IMG/VR virus record: IMGVR_UViG_3300036768_001490
Coordinates: 64,001 to 128,000 of that record
DNA length: 64,000 nt
From: a virus
Direction: 5' to 3' (one strand)
Both the position numbers and the translations under genes were made by a program. The notes beneath the pieces were generated by a model. It saw only the letters and a list, made by a program, of their open reading frames with translations, was not told the DNA's origin and did not search any database. Each line of letters begins with the position of its first letter. Within the stretch, counting starts at the first letter, position 1. Below are positions 7,244 to 42,156 of the stretch, piece by piece.

Positions 7244-8415
7244 TAGTAATTCGAGTTCAACAGTCTGTTGATGTCGTAGGCGGCGTATTGCTGCGCCTGC
7301 TGCTGGCGTTTGCGTTCGTCCTTCTTCTGCGGGAGGATGTGTTCATACGTGAACGCCTGGGGGCGATAGTTAAGTTTAACTGGAGCGTATGGATTCATGT
7401 ACGCATGGTGGATCTGGTTCCCCCGTTGCTGGTAACGGCCTGGACCAAAATGTGACAGGTAGCCGAGGCTGTCGTCTACTTCGTCATCAAACTTCTGTTG
7501 TCCAGGTTGTGCCGGCTGAGCTGGTGGCTTCGCTGGTGGCTGCGCTGGTGGCTGCGCTGGTGGCTGCGCTTGCTGCATCTCGGAAGGATGGTACGTTACG
7601 TTCAACGGTATAGGAAATCGCATATTTTCGCTCTTACTCTCTGGATTACTCCTGTAATAAGTTTGCCAGTTGCCCGAACCTTTTGCGAGTTCTCGCAGTT
7701 CTCCGAGCCTTGATGTTGGAATAAATTCCATCTGCTGACTGCTCCGCAGGCTTTCTATTTGGTCATTCAGCACTTGTTTACGAAAAGGATTGGTTTCATT
7801 GTTGGCCTCAGTTTCCAATAAACGTATGGTTTCAGCAATTCTTTTGCCAACGTCCGATTTGCTGTACTCGTAGTCGTATTCCTTTTTTAACTTACTTAAT
7901 GCCTTCTGTGCGCTATCCAAGTAATACTGGGCATTCACTGATCCGCCGAAAGACTTTGGTAGGGAATCTAGGAGGGTATAATCTGAACCAAATTCGTTTT
8001 TCTTCAGCTGATTTATCAAACGCAGCTTCTTGCTAATATCTCCCGCTGATCCAATATCACTGTATAGTGATCGAACCAACTCATTGTAACGCTCCATAGC
8101 GTTTTGGTAGGCTTCCTCCGCTGGAACCTCTTTGAAGAAAGGTGACAACCAGGGTGGCGGAGCGTCTTTTGCACCATATTTCAGATCACGATGAACGTCG
8201 GATATATGGCCATATAATCCTGTGCCAATACCAGTAATCCCGAGAGCACCGAGTATTTTTCCGTAATGATTTCTTAAAAGATTAGTAGCAGAGCCAAGCA
8301 ATGGAATCCTTGGCCCTCTGTACAGAGCATCCTTGTACAGACCATTGCGGCGGCAGATGTCGTCCAGTGTGGCACGGCAGGCGAGCGCCAACCCCGCGGT
8401 GAGTTCCCTGTTCAT
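7240..8415 (-). CDS. Gly-zipper membrane-type protein with AT-rich cargo region and QPPA repeats
   Basis: Start moved to ATG 8415 (SD-like GAGAGGA); LGALGITGIGTGLYG helix after LYKDA. Confidence 0.7.
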   Translation of the reverse strand: MNRELTAGLALACRATLDDICRRNGLYKDALYRGPRIPLLGSATNLLRNHYGKILGALGITGIGTGLYGHISDVHRDLKYGAKDAPPPWLSPFFKEVPAEEAYQNAMERYNELVRSLYSDIGSAGDISKKLRLINQLKKNEFGSDYTLLDSLPKSFGGSVNAQYYLDSAQKALSKLKKEYDYEYSKSDVGKRIAETIRLLETEANNETNPFRKQVLNDQIESLRSSQQMEFIPTSRLGELRELAKGSGNWQTYYRSNPESKSENMRFPIPLNVTYHPSEMQQAQPPAQPPAQPPAKPPAQPAQPGQQKFDDEVDDSLGYLSHFGPGRYQQRGNQIHHAYMNPYAPVKLNYRPQAFTYEHILPQKKDERKRQQQAQQYAAYDINRLLNSNYY

Positions 8416-8485
8416 GGTTTCGTCCTCTCTTCCTTCAGGCATGGCGATTATAATCACCAGCGCCGGTAAGTTGCCAGCCTGGCCG

Positions 8486-35711: not shown

Positions 35712-36767
35712 TCAGGACAGCAACTGGCCGGCAGTCCCTGCCACTACCTCGTCGGACGTCCGGGGCCTGGCCTCGATGCCGAAGCCGGCCAGCAACACGC
35801 GCAGGTGCATGGCCTCCTGCTCGTCCAGCTCCCAGCGGCCGTGGTACTCCTCCTCGCTGTGGCCGTACATGAACTCCTCCCGGGGAGTGACGTTGTGCCC
35901 GTGGTAGGCTGCCACGGACAGGCCGTTAAAGGGGAACTGGCCATTGTCCACGGCCACGGTCCTGTCGCCGTAGTTCTCCAGCCAGAACGCCTGGGCATCG
36001 TTCACGTCCACGTCCGGGAAGCGCGCCTGGGAAGAGCGGGGCACCAGCATGGTGTTGGGGATGCCCTCTTCCTGGTGGTGGACGTAAGCCGTGGCCGTGT
36101 TAATGTCCACGCGCATCTGGTGCGTGAGCAGGGAGGCATGCCCAGGACGGCGAAAGCACATCTGGTAAGCCAGCTGGAGCGGATGGTAGTAGTCATCGTC
36201 GTCCCAGCAGGGACGGACCCAGTCGCCGTCCGCCAGCTCCAGGCCAATGTTGCGCATCTGGCCCAGGGTGAGCCGCCGCGGCAGGCTGACCCGGCGCTCC
36301 TTGATGGCGAAGTGGGGCACCGTGGTCACGTCCAGGTCGGTCGTGTTGACGATGACCAGCTGCTTGCGCGGGTAGACCTGCTCCACGAACTGCTGCACGG
36401 CCTTGCGGGCCATGCGGATGCGCTCCCGCAGGCCAAAGACCAGGATGCACGTCACCAGGGGCAAGTCCTCCCCCAGGCCGGAAGGAGGCACCACGGACTC
36501 CTTGCCCGCGTGCGGGTCCACCAGGGGGAACGGGAACGCGGACAGCGGTGCCGGCAGAAGGCTGGCCCCGCCGACCTGCCCACCTGCCTCTTCCTCCTTC
36601 TTTTCCTCCGGGCCTCGGTAGTCCGGGCTGGGAGGGACCGGCCTACCGGCCCGAATCGCCTCGACCTGCTCCCGCGTCAGATGAGGGAAGATCTCCCCCA
36701 GACTAGCCTTGGCCATCTCGCCGATGGGAATCCGCGCACTACCTCGGATCGGCATGCCGTTGCCCAT
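35712..36767 (-). CDS. Glycosyltransferase family 2-like
   Basis: ATG 36767 with GGAGG; LPLVTCI, YPRKQLVIVN, RNIGL, WDDDDYYHP. Confidence 0.8.
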   Translation of the reverse strand: MGNGMPIRGSARIPIGEMAKASLGEIFPHLTREQVEAIRAGRPVPPSPDYRGPEEKKEEEAGGQVGGASLLPAPLSAFPFPLVDPHAGKESVVPPSGLGEDLPLVTCILVFGLRERIRMARKAVQQFVEQVYPRKQLVIVNTTDLDVTTVPHFAIKERRVSLPRRLTLGQMRNIGLELADGDWVRPCWDDDDYYHPLQLAYQMCFRRPGHASLLTHQMRVDINTATAYVHHQEEGIPNTMLVPRSSQARFPDVDVNDAQAFWLENYGDRTVAVDNGQFPFNGLSVAAYHGHNVTPREEFMYGHSEEEYHGRWELDEQEAMHLRVLLAGFGIEARPRTSDEVVAGTAGQLLS

Positions 36768-36967
36768 GTGTCGGATGCTCCCTCCAGAAAGAAAGGAGAA
36801 GGAAAGGACAGCGATGGGGCCGATGCCCCGCCGGACGGAAGGGACCACGCGACCGGGAACGGCAGAAGGGAAACGGACCGCCTGGTAAGGGTAAGGGGCT
36901 AAAGGGAAAGTTACCGTCACCGGCCGCGTGGACCCGTCCGTCCTGCCACAGGACAGCGGCGGACGAC

Positions 36968-36976
36968 AGCATAACA
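36968..36976 (-). promoter_or_regulatory. Candidate extended -10 promoter
   Basis: TG-T-TATGCT ~200 nt upstream of GT2 start. Confidence 0.4.
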
Positions 36977-37044
36977 TAACCGGTCTTCCGACAAAAGCAA
37001 CTCGATTTTTGCAGGCAATGGTCCCCGCGGCAGGGACGGACCGG

Positions 37045-37090
37045 AAGCAAAAGAACGGGGCCGGCCACGTAGACAGTCATGACCGGCCCC
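37045..37090 (-). terminator. Candidate intrinsic terminator
   Basis: GGGGCCGG/CCGGCCCC stem (18-nt loop) then GTTCTTTTGCTT. Confidence 0.4.
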
Positions 37091-37540
37091 AGCGGAGGGG
37101 AAGGAACGAACAGGTTGACAGCACTCGTACCCTTTGAGGAGGAAGGAGAAAGTTCCCTTGTGGCGGCCGCGCCGAACCGCCTTAACCCGCCAAGTACCCG
37201 CCCGGACAGCGTGCAGGCCAGCTGCTCCTCCCACCTTCGCCCCTGGTGGCAGCTTCCTTGCCCGGGTAGCCAGCCACAGCACGGCTGCTCCACCCCTGCG
37301 CCAGGACCGCCACGGCCTCCGTCATCCCAAACGCCGTCCGTGCCGGGAGGAAAAAAGCAACAGGATGCAACCCCCACCGGGCGGGACAAGGTACAGGGAC
37401 AGATACCGACGCTACCGTGGCCGGCCACGGCCAGCCGGCCCACGCTCGGCTTCTTGCCTGGTCCGAGCCGGACATGACAGTCGCCACGGCACCGTGGTCC
37501 TGGTCCCGCCTGGCGCACTGCAAGAGTTGCGCCAAGAGGG

Positions 37541-37569
37541 AGTGTAGAAAACGGCACGCGCACTGTCAA
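37541..37569 (-). promoter_or_regulatory. Sigma70-type promoter
   Basis: TTGACA-17 nt-TACACT. Confidence 0.7.
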
Positions 37570-37650
37570 TAGGCCAGCTTCGACTTTTCTGCCAGGACGG
37601 ACCTGGGCTCCACCACCCCCACACCCACCTATTCCAGCCAGCCCTACACC

Positions 37651-37775
37651 AGCCGAAAGCGACCACAAGAAGACATGCCTTGCTGATAGCTAAGAAAAAG
37701 AACGACGCCCCAGCCGATCCGCTTCCTGCGAATCGGCTGGGGAGAGAGGAGTAGTCACTACATGGTGACTACTCC
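37651..37775. repeat. Cassette repeat, terminator half (left boundary)
   Basis: Matches terminator end of the full repeats. Confidence 0.85.
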
Positions 37776-38224
37776 ATCACAGCCCTAACCTCCTCCATGA
37801 CGATGGAGGATGCCTTCATCCAGCGGATGAAGGCATCAAAAGAACTCGCTCTTTTGATGCCTTCCCTGGCCAGCTCCAACCTCCATCCTGGCGGACCATG
37901 CGTACCGTCCACCTGGATGGTCTCCCCACCCAGGCGGAACATTATCTTCCCATCCCTCGATGGGAAGAATGCAGCCCCCCCACTACCCTCCGTCAGCATC
38001 CTTGCCATTTCCGAGACAATCCTGTTCCCTTCCTGGGTTCTCACCTTCTCCCAGCCCCATAGGGCCGGGTGGTGACACTTCCTTTCCCTCCCGGCCAAGT
38101 CGGCCAGGAGGATGACCGCTACGTGGTGGTCGACGCCTTGGCGTCGACCTCCACGCCCTTGGCGGGAGATAATATACTCCTCTGCCGCTTGGCGGAGGAG
38201 TCCAAAGGTATTGGTGGTGGACAT
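37769..38224 (-). CDS. Cassette gene 1, unknown family, paralog of gene 2
   Basis: AAGGAGG SD; HPALWGW and HGPPGWRL motifs. Confidence 0.8.
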   Translation of the reverse strand: MSTTNTFGLLRQAAEEYIISRQGRGGRRQGVDHHVAVILLADLAGRERKCHHPALWGWEKVRTQEGNRIVSEMARMLTEGSGGAAFFPSRDGKIMFRLGGETIQVDGTHGPPGWRLELAREGIKRASSFDAFIRWMKASSIVMEEVRAVME

Positions 38225-38235
38225 AAGAGTCCCCT

Positions 38236-38572
38236 CCTTTGCGGCATCTAGCCGCAGTTGTGTGGTAATAAAAATTGGACAGGAACGTCCTGTCCACCTT
38301 TTGTGACATCAATGGAGAAGATATTTAGGCAGGAGGCGGAGCACCCTGGTCAGAGCAGGGAGCATGGCGCAGGTAGCGCGCCTGAGCCTGATGGGAAGTA
38401 CACTGGCCTGATTGGTGGGAAACGTCTCCCGTGCTTGCTGACCCACGCCAGACGAAAGCGACCACAGGAAAACATGCCTGGCTGATAACTAAGAAAAAGA
38501 ACGACGCCCCAGCTGGTCCGCTTCCTGCGGATCGGCTGGGGAAGAGGAGTAAGCCGCTACGCGGCTTACTCC
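38236..38572. repeat. Full cassette repeat (stop hairpin, terminator, spacer, palindrome, leader)
   Basis: Near-identical to copies at 39.1-39.45 and 40.4-40.7 kb. Confidence 0.92.
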
Positions 38573-39102
38573 TTTCGGATCTCTTCCGTGATACTCCTCA
38601 CGACCGTACTCCAGATGGGTAGGTCATGAGGGATGGATATTACGTGAATCATTCTAAGTTGGGGTGGATACCCCGCTGATCGGAGTAGCCCTTCACGGGC
38701 TACTCTTAACCTCCATCCTGGAGGTCCGTGCTCGCGGCCGAGCAGTACCCTGCGTCCGTCATCCGTGACGAACACCAGCCTTTCTATCTCGGGGTGAAAT
38801 ACCCCGCCGTAAAACGGCGGCGATCCCCCTACGCTGCAGCGTCTTGCGACGGCCCGGATCGCCATCGACCATACCTCAATCCTTGCTTTGGGCTGTTGGC
38901 CGCTGCCCCAGCCCCAGAAAGCCGGGTGGCGTGCGCATCCCTCCTCTTCTCCGGCCATGTCAAGCATGGCGATGGCCGCAGAGTGTGCTGCAAGCTCCTC
39001 CGAGGAAACGTCTTTGCGATCCAGCCCGGCGAGGCGTAGGTAGTATTCCTCGGCCATGTTTGCCGCCATTATGAACCTGGTGGTTTCGTGATGGGACATC
39101 AT
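38566..39102 (-). CDS. Cassette gene 2, unknown family, paralog of gene 1
   Basis: AAGGAGG SD; HPAFWGW and HGPPGWRL motifs. Confidence 0.8.
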   Translation of the reverse strand: MMSHHETTRFIMAANMAEEYYLRLAGLDRKDVSSEELAAHSAAIAMLDMAGEEEGCARHPAFWGWGSGQQPKARIEVWSMAIRAVARRCSVGGSPPFYGGVFHPEIERLVFVTDDGRRVLLGREHGPPGWRLRVAREGLLRSAGYPPQLRMIHVISIPHDLPIWSTVVRSITEEIRKE

Positions 39103-39107
39103 GGTGT

Positions 39108-39458
39108 CCTCCTTTGCGGCTGTGCCGCAGTTGTGTGGTAATAAAAATTGGACAGGAACGTCCTGTCCGCGGCATTTATTGTGACATCAATGGAGAAGAT
39201 ATTTAGGCAGGATGTGAAGCACCCTGGTCAGGGCAGGGAGCATGGCGCAGGTAGCGCGCCTGAGCCTGATGGGAAGTACACTGGCCTGATTGGTGGGAAA
39301 CGTCTCTCGTGCTTGCTGACCCACACCAGCAGGAAGCTACCGCGAGAAAACACGACGGGCTGATAGCTAAGAAAAAGAACGACGCCCCAGCCGATCCGCT
39401 TCCTGCAGATCGGCTGGGGAGAGAGAGAGAGGAGTAGTCACCGAGTAGTGACTACTCC
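39108..39458. repeat. Full cassette repeat
   Basis: Seen directly. Confidence 0.92.
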
Positions 39459-40366
39459 TCTTCTTTCTTGCCGCCAATCCTCCTCATGGCCTCGGCGACG
39501 GACTGTCGTACTCTTTCGTTTTGGTCCAGCCTATACCTGTTCAAGGCTGGCACGGCGTCCTTGCCGTCCGGGCCGAGCTTGCCGATGGCCTTGCACACAT
39601 GCTCTCGGATCATCCTGTTCTCGAGGGCTTTGACAAGAACCGGCAGCAAGGCCCTACCCTTGGAGGGGAAATCATCCACGATCTCCCCGAGGACCTCGAC
39701 CGCTGCTACCTGGGCGATATAGTGAAAGTAACCCGAACTAGAGTTCGGGTCGGATGAGATCAGCTTGACCATCATGGCGACCGTTTCGCCATCGTCCGGC
39801 GACACGGCGCCAAGGGCCTTGACCAGGCCCCTCACGTTTACGGTCTTGCTGTCCAGGCAGCGCTGAAGCGCTGCCCTCATAAGCGGGGCAAGCGGCCGAG
39901 CACCACGCTTCATCTCTTTGACTTCGTCGGCCAACGCCAGCAACTCTCTTGGCTGGCCGACTGCAAAGACGACCGCGTACTTGTACAGGTCTGGGCGAAC
40001 CTGCCGCAACGCTTTGGCGGCAGCCTGCACAACCTCCTTGTTGTTAGCCGACACCGCCATCGCCTCACACAGGGCATAGGCAGACTCCTCTTCCCTGGAC
40101 TTTGCCAATGCCTTGGCGGCGATCTTCTCGGCATCCGTACCTTCATGGCGCGCAATGGCTTCCTTGCACTTGGCCTTCGCCTGCTCTCCTCTCACGTCGC
40201 AGCCGCAGCCGCATTGCCAACCTAGCTTGGCCGCTGCACATGCCCCGATCACCATCCCGATCACCACTCCGAGCAGCAGGGCGGGAATGATGCCCTTGCT
40301 GCGGGAAGTTGCCGGCTGCAGCAGCACGACTACCTTGCACGAGTCGAGGACGAAGATGGTGTTCAT
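39452..40366 (-). CDS. Cassette gene 3: membrane-anchored HEAT-repeat protein
   Basis: N-terminal TM helix; IGKLGPDGKDAVPAL...D..ERVR..VAEAM. Confidence 0.75.
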   Translation of the reverse strand: MNTIFVLDSCKVVVLLQPATSRSKGIIPALLLGVVIGMVIGACAAAKLGWQCGCGCDVRGEQAKAKCKEAIARHEGTDAEKIAAKALAKSREEESAYALCEAMAVSANNKEVVQAAAKALRQVRPDLYKYAVVFAVGQPRELLALADEVKEMKRGARPLAPLMRAALQRCLDSKTVNVRGLVKALGAVSPDDGETVAMMVKLISSDPNSSSGYFHYIAQVAAVEVLGEIVDDFPSKGRALLPVLVKALENRMIREHVCKAIGKLGPDGKDAVPALNRYRLDQNERVRQSVAEAMRRIGGKKEEE

Positions 40367-40423
40367 AACGAACTCCCCAAATGGGCGACGCCCAACTGAC
40401 GCACATGCGTCAGTCGTGGTTAG

Positions 40424-40696
40424 ATTGGACAGGAACGTCCTGTCCGCGGCATTTATTGTGGCACCAATGGAGAAGATATTTAGGCAGGAGGCGGAGCACC
40501 CTGGTCAGGGCAGGGAGCATGGCGCAGGTAGCGCGCCTGAACCTGATGGGAAGTACACTGGCCTGGTTGGTGGGAAACGTCTCTCGTGCTTGCTGACCCA
40601 TGCCAGCCGGAGGCTACCACGAGAAAACATGCCGGGCCGATAGCTAAGAAAAAGAACGACCCCAGCCGATCCGCTTCCTGCAGATCGGCTGGGGGG
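40424..40696. repeat. Full cassette repeat
   Basis: Seen directly. Confidence 0.92.
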
Positions 40697-40709
40697 AATG
40701 CGGGCAGCC

Positions 40710-40856
40710 CTAAACGGGCCACCCGCAGGTGGGACACTCCTCCGTGAAACACGGAGGAGTGTCCTCACCGCAGTGAGGACACCTGTCGGCCCCCACTGCC
40801 TCCTCCTCATCGAGGAGGATGTCGTCGTCGTACTCGAAGTCGTAGTAGTACATCAT
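40710..40856 (-). CDS. Cassette gene 4: 48-aa acidic zinc-ribbon protein (absent from ORF track)
   Basis: AAGGAGG SD; MMYYYDFEYDDDILLDEEEAVGADRCPHCGEDTPPCFTEECPTCGWPV. Confidence 0.75.
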   Translation of the reverse strand: MMYYYDFEYDDDILLDEEEAVGADRCPHCGEDTPPCFTEECPTCGWPV

Positions 40857-40880
40857 TTCCCCTCCTTAAGGGATAACGTT

Positions 40881-40945
40881 TATTGGACAGGTACGTCCTG
40901 TCCACCTTTTATGACACCAGTGGAGGGGATATTTAGGCGGGGAGG
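40881..40945. repeat. Cassette repeat, promoter/palindrome half (right boundary)
   Basis: GGACAGGTACGTCCTGTCC ... GATATTTAGGC. Confidence 0.85.
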
Positions 40946-41043
40946 ATGGAGCGCCTGAATGTTGGCAGAGAAAGGAAAAACCCCGCCACCGTGACGCCAC
41001 GGCGGCGGGGCCGTCAGGGATGACCGGAGGTGGAGCGCCCCGG

Positions 41044-41847
41044 TCAGAACAGGGGAGTATTCCGAAGCGCCGGCAGCGCGTTAAGCTGAGGCGTCTGCTG
41101 GAAGTCCCAGGAGGGCAAATACTGCCGCAACTGGCGGAAAACGTCCTGATACGTGCCGCCCCGCGACTGCACCAGCCGGAAGGCACGCAGGGCGTAATAG
41201 GTCATGGCGCCGCAGAAGCGGCCGCCAATCCGCGCGTCCGCGCTGTACTCATGGTCCCGGCAGGCCGAGAAGTGAATGACGCCAGGCAGAGGCTGGTCCT
41301 GCCACCGGACCTGCTGGCCAAAGGCGCGCTCCATGCCATGCCACAACGGACTGTCGGGCGAAAGGAAGTGGGACGGCGGCAGGAAACGGACCCTCCGCTC
41401 CGACACGCTGCTGTCCGTGGCGAAGCGGAAGACCGAGCCCGAATGGCAGCAGTCACTGATCCAGAGCAGGCGCGCTCCCGGACGCAGCCGGCCAAACAGA
41501 TCGGCCAGTTCGTCGTCCAGGATCAGGTTGCGGCCATTGTCGCCCATGTCCGCCGGGCACAGCGCCTCGTCCCGGCCGTCCGGCTCGTCCCCGGAGAGGT
41601 CCGGCAGCCAGGTGCCGTGGCCAGAATACGTCACGGCGCTGCACGTGCCCGGCGACGTCTGGTCGATGACCTGCCGCAGGGCCGTCAGGATGTTACAGCG
41701 GCTGGCCTGGCGCTCCAGCATGGAGACGACGTCGAAGCCCTGGCCATGCAGGAAGCTGCCCCAGTCGTTGGCATCGTTGATGCAGCCGCGCAGCTCAAAC
41801 GGAGTGCCCGTGTAATTGATGCCGATGCACAGTGCCTTGCCCGACAT
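41044..41847 (-). CDS. Metacaspase/caspase-family peptidase (C14)
   Basis: KALCIGINY, LRGCINDA, YSGHG and DCCHSG dyad. Confidence 0.88.
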   Translation of the reverse strand: MSGKALCIGINYTGTPFELRGCINDANDWGSFLHGQGFDVVSMLERQASRCNILTALRQVIDQTSPGTCSAVTYSGHGTWLPDLSGDEPDGRDEALCPADMGDNGRNLILDDELADLFGRLRPGARLLWISDCCHSGSVFRFATDSSVSERRVRFLPPSHFLSPDSPLWHGMERAFGQQVRWQDQPLPGVIHFSACRDHEYSADARIGGRFCGAMTYYALRAFRLVQSRGGTYQDVFRQLRQYLPSWDFQQTPQLNALPALRNTPLF

Positions 41848-41913
41848 GCCTGCCCTCCTCTCCCATTGCCTCCGGGCGACGGCCCAGCCCGCAGGAAACC
41901 TAAAAAACGGATT

Positions 41914-42156
41914 TTACCGGGCAGACGGCTGGACCGGGGCATCTCCCCCGCTTCTGGCCGCCGACGTCTCCCGATCCGTCGGCGGCCGGCTGGCCGGCGG
42001 CCAGCCACGGAACCAGACGCCCAGGTAGTAGCAGACCTGGGCCAGTACCGTCCCGGCCACGAACAGCAGCACAAGCCCGAGGACCAGGACGCTGAGGCTG
42101 AAGGCCATCTGGCTCAGCGCGGGCCACTTCCCGTAGGCTTCCAACCACCTGTCCAT
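41914..42156 (-). CDS. Small membrane protein
   Basis: ATG 42156; long hydrophobic helix. Confidence 0.6.
   Translation of the reverse strand: MDRWLEAYGKWPALSQMAFSLSVLVLGLVLLFVAGTVLAQVCYYLGVWFRGWPPASRPPTDRETSAARSGGDAPVQPSAR

Follow-up and report, generated by a model that had tools for sequence, protein, structure and literature searches.

Morons are independent transcription units that have been added between the backbone genes of tailed phages (PMC3594210). In T4-type phages, promoter-early stem-loops (PeSLs) have been described, which are composite motifs of a sigma-70 promoter and a stem-loop; they show ~100 nt of conservation and are present in ~50 copies per genome, in hyperplastic regions beside ORFans (PMC2839356, PMC4122927). 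PeSL recombination deletes, inserts or replaces genes and yields mini-circles (PMC2839356, PMC4122927). Here, we describe an array of four single-gene cassettes joined by ~340-nt repeat units in an uncultured phage. The array lies in a 64,000-nt stretch (hereafter, the window) corresponding to bases 64001-128000 of the linear 182,719-bp IMG/VR record IMGVR_UViG_3300036768_001490, which is estimated to be 84% complete, has a GC content of ~0.67 and carries nearly all of its genes on the minus strand. The reading favoured here, to which we give a probability of about 0.5, is that of a PeSL-like moron array whose units are kept uniform and moved between related phages by homologous recombination. 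The conserved and recurring part is evidently the ~340-nt junction unit, and the variable part is the genes.

Anatomy of the repeat units

On the minus strand, the array follows a caspase-like gene in the order R4, D, R3, C, R2, B, R1, A and R0 (Table 1), in which A to D are the cassette genes. Repeat finding identified a 240-nt core family at 38269-38508, 39147-39386 and 40424-40663 (85-93% identical), and shorter repeat families lengthen this core on both sides. Three full repeats of ~340 nt (R1-R3) stand between the four genes and are 85-98% identical; the repeats are real and far beyond chance. The four cassettes with three full repeats and two half-repeats at the ends that an earlier note on this DNA had described were borne out, R1-R3 being alignable, R0 being a terminator half and R4 a palindrome half. 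The differences of 2-15% between the copies and their private leaders speak against an assembly artefact, which was rejected.

Read 5′ to 3′ on the minus strand, the unit comprises a stop-codon hairpin, a GC-rich hairpin, a T-run, a spacer, a promoter-like box, a palindrome, a leader, the Shine-Dalgarno (SD) sequence AAGGAGG and the ATG of the next gene; reading and alignment thus agreed with the order proposed in the earlier note (hairpin, terminator, spacer, box, palindrome, SD and gene). The putative terminator is a 15-bp GC-rich hairpin (CCCCAGCCGATC...GATCGGCTGGGG) followed by a T-run ending in TTAGCTATCAG. That the units contain terminators with U-tracts was likewise supported by the calling of hairpins with T-runs, with the correction that the T-run begins 3-5 nt past the terminator stem and that the stem of R1 has two mismatches. 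The spacer is ~190 nt long and is followed by the box CCTAAATAT; the palindrome GGACAGGACGTNCCTGTCC (19-21 bp, with 8-9-bp arms around a 3-5-bp centre) is located 24-29 nt beyond the box. A leader hairpin before the SD sequence, previously ascribed to every unit, was found in R1, R2 and the unit of a second phage (contig L016, see below), whereas R3 has a different one and R4 has none. R3 ends in a private ~46-nt leader that arrived with cargo C.

The half-repeat R4 begins ~35 nt upstream of the box and contains only the last part of the unit. R0 is limited to the stop hairpin, the putative terminator and ~70 nt of spacer with the 5′ arm of the spacer hairpin H2, after which the homology ends. 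The box, the palindrome and the terminator arm were found in the array only and nowhere else in the 183-kb record, and the same is true of the whole unit; all copies lie within 37640-40975, and the many dispersed copies typical of PeSLs were not found.

Table 1. Coordinates of the array, its borders and the T-run+TAGCTATCAG signal. Positions are those of the window unless marked as genome (record) positions or preceded by the name of a contig or record.
Feature	Position	Strand	Description
Caspase-like peptidase C14 gene	41044-41847	-	Upstream backbone gene, left island border; conserved in related large phages
Terminator of the caspase gene	40979-41012	-	Strong; directly followed by R4
R4, upstream half-repeat	40857-40975	-	Box CCTAAATAT 40929-40937, palindrome 40885-40903 and SD only
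Cargo D	40710-40856	-	48 aa; acidic N-terminus, CxxC...CxxC zinc-ribbon-like motif; GC3 0.80
R3, full unit	40367-40709	-	Putative terminator 40660-40694, T-run+TAGCTATCGG 40637-40647, spacer, box 40476-40484, palindrome 40427-40445
Cargo C	39452-40366	-	304 aa; N-terminal transmembrane segment and HEAT repeats
R2, full unit	39103-39451	-	Stop hairpin, putative terminator 39385-39419, T-run+TAGCTATCAG 39360-39370, spacer
R2, promoter part		-	Box 39199-39207, palindrome 39150-39168, leader hairpin, SD
Cargo B	38566-39102	-	178 aa; unannotated phage family, motifs RHPAF and W..AREGLRR
R1, full unit	38225-38565	-	Putative terminator 38507-38541, TTAGTTATCAG 38482-38492
R1, promoter part		-	Box 38321-38329, palindrome 38277-38295, leader hairpin, SD
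Cargo A	37769-38224	-	151 aa; paralog of B
R0, downstream half-repeat	37640-37768	-	Stop hairpin of A, putative terminator 37708-37742, T-run+TAGCTATCAG 37683-37693
Backbone sigma-70-like promoter	37541-37569	-	TTGACA-17-TACACT; downstream edge of the array, just past R0
Glycosyltransferase-like gene	35712-36977	-	Downstream backbone gene, right island border
T-run+TAGCTATCAG, array sites	37683-37693, 38482-38492, 39360-39370, 40637-40647	-	
T-run+TAGCTATCAG, sites outside the array	Genome 49216, 116563, 134974	-	
	Genome 145718	+	
T-run+TAGCTATCAG in relatives	L007:7940-7948; G002:23808 and 60822		

A second instance of the unit in a related phage

The closest member of the family to which A and B belong, P0123, is encoded on the JGI metagenome contig L016 (5,533 bp; sample 3300010938), and the unit was found on the same contig. 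Over 325-370 nt, L016:4481-4840 and R1-R3 share 81-83% identity; a further stop hairpin and terminator lie at L016:5435-5533, after the intact P0123 gene. A match to the family profile, split over two frames (independent E-value 5e-5), was obtained at L016:4126-4490, ahead of the first unit, and this segment is taken to be a decayed A/B-family gene. The phage represented by L016 is related to the one studied here, since its 878-aa portal-like protein is 52% identical to that of the gene at genome 130.4-133.3 kb. Its cassettes adjoin the portal-like gene in the opposite orientation and are not at the caspase site. A search of relatives for repeats with other cargo or in another position, as the earlier note had envisaged, was thus positive once.

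Exact-motif scans of IMG/VR and of the JGI metagenome contigs gave no further unit, and the 18-mer matches (2 in IMG/VR and 34 in GTDB genomes) were at chance level and showed no extended similarity; among cultured phages, there was no DNA or protein match. Elements of a similar design, unrelated in sequence to the unit, were seen on two further contigs with A/B-family genes: L054 has its own ~60-nt element ahead of each of two successive genes (531-590 and 945-1000), and in L058, the family gene is flanked on either side by a ~60-nt element with two hairpins (1-80 and 672-765). The first ~110 nt of L054 equal positions ~1130-1240, and this contig may therefore be a collapsed tandem or circular assembly. 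No such repeats were found on L017, L055 and L057, which also carry A/B-family genes.

Conservation of the unit compared with coding sequences

In codon-level comparisons, the portal-like orthologs of the two phages share 55% nucleotide identity (40% at third positions), and the corresponding values are 52% (38%) for B and P0123 and 49% (40%) for A and B. By this measure, orthologous coding DNA is saturated between the two phages. Conservation is thus far higher in the non-coding unit (81-83% identity) than in the coding sequences (52-55%). The conservation is uneven along the unit: the ~90-nt spacer core is 96-98% identical within the window and 90% to L016, the promoter part 91-94% and 77-79%, and the 5′ spacer 79-86% and 80-86%, respectively. 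In the spacer core and the promoter part, the copies in the window are thus closer to each other than to L016, whereas in the terminator and the 5′ spacer, the two identity ranges overlap. Both L016 terminators share derived stem changes. A maximum-likelihood tree gave the topology (A,(B,P0123)) with 96/71 support. If this tree is right, the gene duplication would predate the split of the two phages and the units would have evolved in concert; the likeness of the units within a genome and the shared stem changes in L016, despite the tree, are the grounds for proposing concerted evolution.

The island in related phages and its base composition

The array differs in composition from the rest of the phage, having a GC content of 0.58-0.59 across 38-41 kb compared with 0.66-0.70 in its surroundings, in agreement with the earlier description of the region as more AT-rich than its flanks. 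The GC3 values of the four cassette genes are 0.64-0.80 against ~0.88. Such atypical base composition is a feature of morons. The L016 contig has a GC content of 0.56, which is similar to the low GC and GC3 of the array and was counted in favour of the PeSL-like reading.

In two nearly complete or complete relatives, the position corresponding to the array was occupied differently. In L008 (record G002, 219 kb, 98% complete), ~525 bp separate the caspase homolog from the glycosyltransferase homolog and the island is empty, as expected of a moron inserted between genes that are adjacent in relatives. In L007 (G001, 235 kb, 100% complete), the gap between them is 6.4 kb and contains unrelated genes, namely genes for a MYG1-like exonuclease and an orotidine monophosphate decarboxylase and unknown genes. 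Neither G001 nor G002 holds the unit or an A/B-family gene. The content of the island is therefore not fixed across these relatives, and indels and replacements next to orphan genes, another feature of PeSLs, are present. As the relatives are distant (41-62% amino acid identity), the island events must be old. The backbone promoter just past R0 is the sole intergenic site with at least 10 of 12 consensus matches in the 183-kb record, and in L007, TTGAAA-18-TACACT is present directly after the caspase gene. Given the terminator of the caspase gene on one side and this sole strong sigma-70-like site downstream of R0 on the other, the array appears to have been inserted between the two.

Cargo genes

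The cargo, which the earlier note had regarded as heterogeneous, is not fully so. A and B are paralogs (30% identity, E=1e-19), and C was copied from another gene of the same phage. A word-indexed search returned B itself only, whereas a profile built from A and B found 15 relatives among 1.84 billion representatives, and the family alignment contains 25. The relatives are all unannotated, mostly 200-240 aa in length with an extra N-terminal segment of ~40 residues, and the family motifs are RHPAF, GKGRK..DG.AW and W..AREGLRR. Their contexts are phage-like, e.g. that on L055 with a terminase, an integrase, a sigma factor and a D5 primase. The model of B is confident (pLDDT 90.8); it gave no match in PDB and BFVD at E<=0.001 (Foldseek), and in VIA-align wide, the best Z was 4.3, with no known fold match. 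No Pfam, PHROG or PADLOC match and no usable ESM Atlas match were found for A and B. D fell below the cut-off of Zn_ribbon_3, its zinc-ribbon matches being sub-threshold only, and its stop codon lies in the loop or 3′ side of a private hairpin. An anti-host role of the cargo is a guess, and any other role would be equally conjectural.

The best relative of C besides itself is C′, a 365-aa paralog encoded at genome 1898-2964 (minus strand) with an added N-terminal zinc ribbon. The two are 75-79% identical in DNA, and the homology covers the ~46 nt of leader upstream of the ATG, excludes the box and the palindrome, and ends ~20 nt before the stop codon of C. The remaining tail, AAGAAAGAAGAGGAGTAG, matches the 3′ ends of A/B-family genes, and the last codons (KKEEE*) are of the A/B-cassette type. 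These limits of homology and the A/B-type tail show that C is a copy of a phage gene that has overwritten most of an A/B-family gene, its body, in a cassette that was already there; cargo C is, on this evidence, derived from C′ and was swapped into an older A/B cassette. A 922-bp contig (L015) carries a C′ ortholog that is not followed by the unit. C′ itself belongs to another accessory region of low GC3, which opens the record (genome 1-5200), and the gene that follows C′ has a leader (ACCACACAA...AAAGGAGGGGAC) similar to that of R1 and R2.

The presence of the A/B paralogs, the two family copies in tandem that are also found in L016 and the A/B-type tail of C, by which three of the four cassettes trace to family genes, would suit a simpler history of plain tandem duplication of an A/B gene with its flanks, followed by diversifying selection on the coding sequences and local gene conversion of the flanks, with no exchange between phages and no mobile role. 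This history is unlikely, since the genome position and orientation of the module differ between the two phages, two complete relatives lack it and its GC content is unlike that of the host genome; moreover, 81-83% identity in non-coding DNA would be hard to reach by vertical descent when orthologs are saturated.

Transcription signals

A terminator scan of 36700-41200 gave 18 sites compared with 3.8 expected from shuffled sequences, the unit hairpins being the strongest; the calls include those of R0, R2 and R3 at the positions given in Table 1. A terminator stem-loop within the repeated motif, as in PeSLs, is thus present at the sequence level, and in L016, the stem is kept by compensatory changes. 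The folding energies at the 3′ ends of all six cassettes are -20 to -30 kcal/mol (z-scores of -3.3 to -5.9); in each of the six, the stop codon lies inside the 3′-end hairpin, and the inner stems differ. The box is a putative promoter on the basis of its position, its AT-richness and the retention of a promoter-sized piece in R4.

In the record, there are eight intergenic copies of the T-run+TAGCTATCAG signal seen after the terminator, four of them in the array and four outside it. Its counts in three phages (the present one and two relatives) are 8, 2 and 1, and reversed-pattern controls gave zero. Outside the array, it is usually found past a hairpin and 7-120 nt ahead of a start codon, and the L007 copy is 25 nt ahead of the caspase start codon. 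It could be a start signal or a terminator part for a phage transcription system. With 8 sites in this phage and 1-2 per complete relative, it is too infrequent to be a general phage promoter, a role that was rejected.

If the array were instead a single operon transcribed from upstream, the units would be intercistronic processing or stabilising elements, comparable with the RNase III sites of T7. The several strong hairpins between cistrons, the weak sigma-70 match of the box, the offset of the T-run from the stem and the imperfect stem of R1 would all fit. However, the 15-bp GC-rich stems with T-runs are called as terminators well above shuffled sequences, the upstream caspase gene ends in its own strong terminator and all that the first cassette retains of the unit is a promoter-sized piece. 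An operon is consequently improbable.

Predicted structure of the unit

For the four full units, RNAalifold predicted the terminator, the long helix H2 in the 5′ spacer, three short core helices, the palindrome and the leader hairpin. In this structure, 96% of cells are paired, and five pairs are changed on both sides, a number reached by 2 of 500 shuffles; as a control, sliding the pair partners gave zero to one such pairs. In H2, the G-U transitions preserve pairing on the gene-sense strand only. The palindrome of L016 shows a symmetric C-G to T-A change, which fits either an RNA or DNA hairpin or a co-evolved operator. The folding z-score of the unit is -3.9. As it comes from four sequences, the structural covariation is suggestive, not conclusive.

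Several candidate products were considered and rejected. No relevant Rfam match was found at E<=1 on either strand of 36500-42000, which rejects a known RNA family, and there is no tRNA or tmRNA in the window. A protein-coding spacer was rejected because no frame stays open in L016, where a 1-nt indel and the loss of an ATG disrupt them all, including a 71-75-aa plus-strand open reading frame (ORF). As to an antisense target of the spacer within the phage, only chance matches of up to 15 nt were detected.

The main rival to the PeSL-like reading, with which it is not exclusive, arises from these data: the unit may be conserved by purifying selection as a functional product, either a structured RNA or a dense set of protein-binding sites, with the cassette appearance being secondary. 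The RNA would be a long 5′ leader or a small RNA, either 3′-derived or stand-alone. We consider this alternative fairly unlikely. It is kept alive by the spacer core, which is the best conserved part of a unit that has changed little between phages with saturated orthologs, and by the covariation, in that helices with compensatory or G-U changes working on the gene-sense strand only include H2 in the otherwise variable 5′ spacer. The folding z-score and the lack of any retained ORF point in the same direction, and transcription could begin at the T-run+TAGCTATCAG signal with which the spacer opens, given that elsewhere this signal is placed 7-30 nt ahead of start codons. These points must be set against the negative Rfam result, the little power that covariation has with only four full copies, and the lack of complementarity to other sequences of the phage. 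The core is also missing from both ends of the array, leaving the D and A cassettes without it on one side. Finally, in most segments, the copies within the genome are more alike than those between genomes, a pattern that selection alone does not predict.

Search for a recombinase

The earlier statement that the window contains no integrase was extended to the whole record (84% complete): neither PF00589, for which controls were positive in 14 of 14 genomes, nor PF00239 had a match, and a site-specific tyrosine or serine recombinase as the agent of shuffling was accordingly rejected for the record. An integron-like capture of cassettes, in which the palindrome or hairpins would be the sites of an unidentified recombinase, is suggested by the half-sites at the ends, the conserved hairpin after every gene and the palindrome symmetry retained in L016 through a double change. 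Yet besides the missing recombinase, the array ends map to no single crossover point, and the junctions of C lie inside the leader and inside the coding 3′ end, not at a fixed site. The 8-9-bp arms and 3-5-bp centre of the palindrome are unlike the core sites of tyrosine and serine recombinases. Capture of this kind is very improbable.

Proposed origin of the array

Under the PeSL-like reading, four moron-like expression cassettes would have come to stand in tandem between the caspase-like gene and the next backbone promoter. Each would comprise one gene preceded by a promoter-like box, a palindrome (an operator or a 5′ RNA hairpin) and a strong ribosome-binding site, and followed by a stop-enclosing hairpin, an intrinsic-terminator hairpin and the T-run+TAGCTATCAG signal used elsewhere in the lineage. 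The array would most likely have started from an A/B-family gene that was repeated in tandem together with its own flanking regulatory sequences; later, a duplicate of the phage's HEAT-repeat gene would have replaced one A/B copy, giving C, and the small Zn-ribbon gene D would have been added. Homologous recombination or gene conversion, both within a phage and between co-infecting ones, may have kept the units alike, and the same homology would let cassettes be lost, gained, replaced or moved, as proposed for the PeSLs of T4-type phages. We infer this homogenising and mobilising force of recombination, as well as the promoter and terminator activities, from the sequence.

Several observations weigh against this reading. 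None of the CCTAAATAT boxes with their upstream region passes a 9/12 sigma-70 consensus scan, although the consensus may not be that of the host, and the best hexamer pairings at the boxes need 19-20-nt spacers. The ends of the array differ in that R0 stops at alignment column ~155 and R4 begins at ~237, a gap that is accounted for neither by simple tandem duplication nor by crossover at a single site. With only two instances of the unit, the proposed shuffling rests on few events. The high conservation of the spacer core could mean direct selection rather than recombination, and the A/B/P0123 tree has long branches and moderate support.

A more far-reaching version, which is rather unlikely, would make the unit a portable expression socket, i.e. 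an autonomous structured non-coding module that spreads independently of the genes it flanks and is itself under direct selection. Its parts may be the terminator, the T-run+TAGCTATCAG start signal, the covarying H2, the near-invariant ~90-nt core, the box and the palindrome. There would possibly be a dedicated binding protein for the palindrome or the core, and the module may give regulated expression to whatever stands between two copies.

Neighbouring features

The caspase-like gene shows 39-62% identity to genes in at least five viral contigs, two being complete phages of >200 kb, and also matches the PADLOC 'caspase' model (E=3e-12). Homology of the glycosyltransferase to its relatives begins near residue 63-69, and the true start is therefore probably near 36770. 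Between the backbone promoter and this gene, ~0.6-0.9 kb (36978-37640, minus strand) lacks a credible ORF and contains terminator-like hairpins at 37379-37358 and 37091-37056. This stretch has no Rfam match and no A/B-family remnant and is not conserved in L007, L008 or L016; a long leader is conceivable here, as is an uncharacterised RNA.

Elsewhere, a 1.2-kb AT-rich stretch at window 7244-8485 (GC 0.49 in a 0.67 genome) contains many AT-rich runs and no gene called by the GC3 criterion. At genome 50967-54429, ~9.6-13 kb before the start of the window, 3.4 kb without called genes holds another repeat array, the elements of which include GGCATTCCATCCGGGGAATTATTCGGCAC and CAGCTGGACACACTAATCATTGCACCGGACAGC with 4-7 occurrences each.

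Comparison with known systems

The locus is a clean case of non-coding DNA conserved far above neighbouring essential and accessory genes. The ~340-nt unit is a defined element in which promoter, terminator, operator or hairpin, and spacer-core functions are open to testing, and it could mark accessory-gene islands in uncultured phages. The A/B family has also been delimited as an unannotated family of at least 25 members with a confident model without a known fold, and it is found repeatedly in repeat-flanked arrays.

Of the systems compared, integrons, named as an analogue in the earlier note, share with the array a series of single-gene cassettes, each followed by an imperfect inverted repeat, and heterogeneous cargo. 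The analogy is not supported, because there is no integrase, no attI- or attC-type site and no common Pc promoter, the junctions are not at a fixed core site and each cassette has its own box and SD sequence. The RNase III hairpins of the T7 early operon are likewise conserved hairpin-rich elements between successive small early genes, but the hairpins of the present array precede T-runs and a promoter-like box, and the unit has nearly identical copies and is far longer. As in morons, there is a putative own promoter and terminator, insertion between genes that are adjacent in L008 and an atypical composition; the differences are that four cassettes stand in tandem with nearly identical regulatory flanks and that the flanks, not the genes, are conserved and recurring.

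PeSLs, which had also been named previously, remain the closest analogue as self-contained-looking single-gene units in a variable island. In both cases, composite terminator/promoter repeats occupy the intergenic spaces of a variable region, mostly by orphan genes, each gene has its own SD sequence, and presence, cargo and position differ between related phages. There is no dedicated recombinase in either, repeat homology being the proposed substrate for deletion, insertion and replacement. The locus lacks two features of PeSLs, the sigma-70 consensus promoter and the dispersed copies: the box does not conform to the sigma-70 consensus, and a single locus with three full and two half copies contrasts with ~50 dispersed copies. 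The unit is also ~340 nt rather than ~100 nt in conserved length, contains a stop-codon hairpin, a separate palindrome and a non-coding spacer of ~190 nt that is conserved and structured, and resides in a large, high-GC phage that is not T4-type. If the reading proposed here is true, PeSL-type modular shuffling would not be peculiar to T4-type coliphages but would also operate, in a more elaborate form, in distant high-GC large phages.

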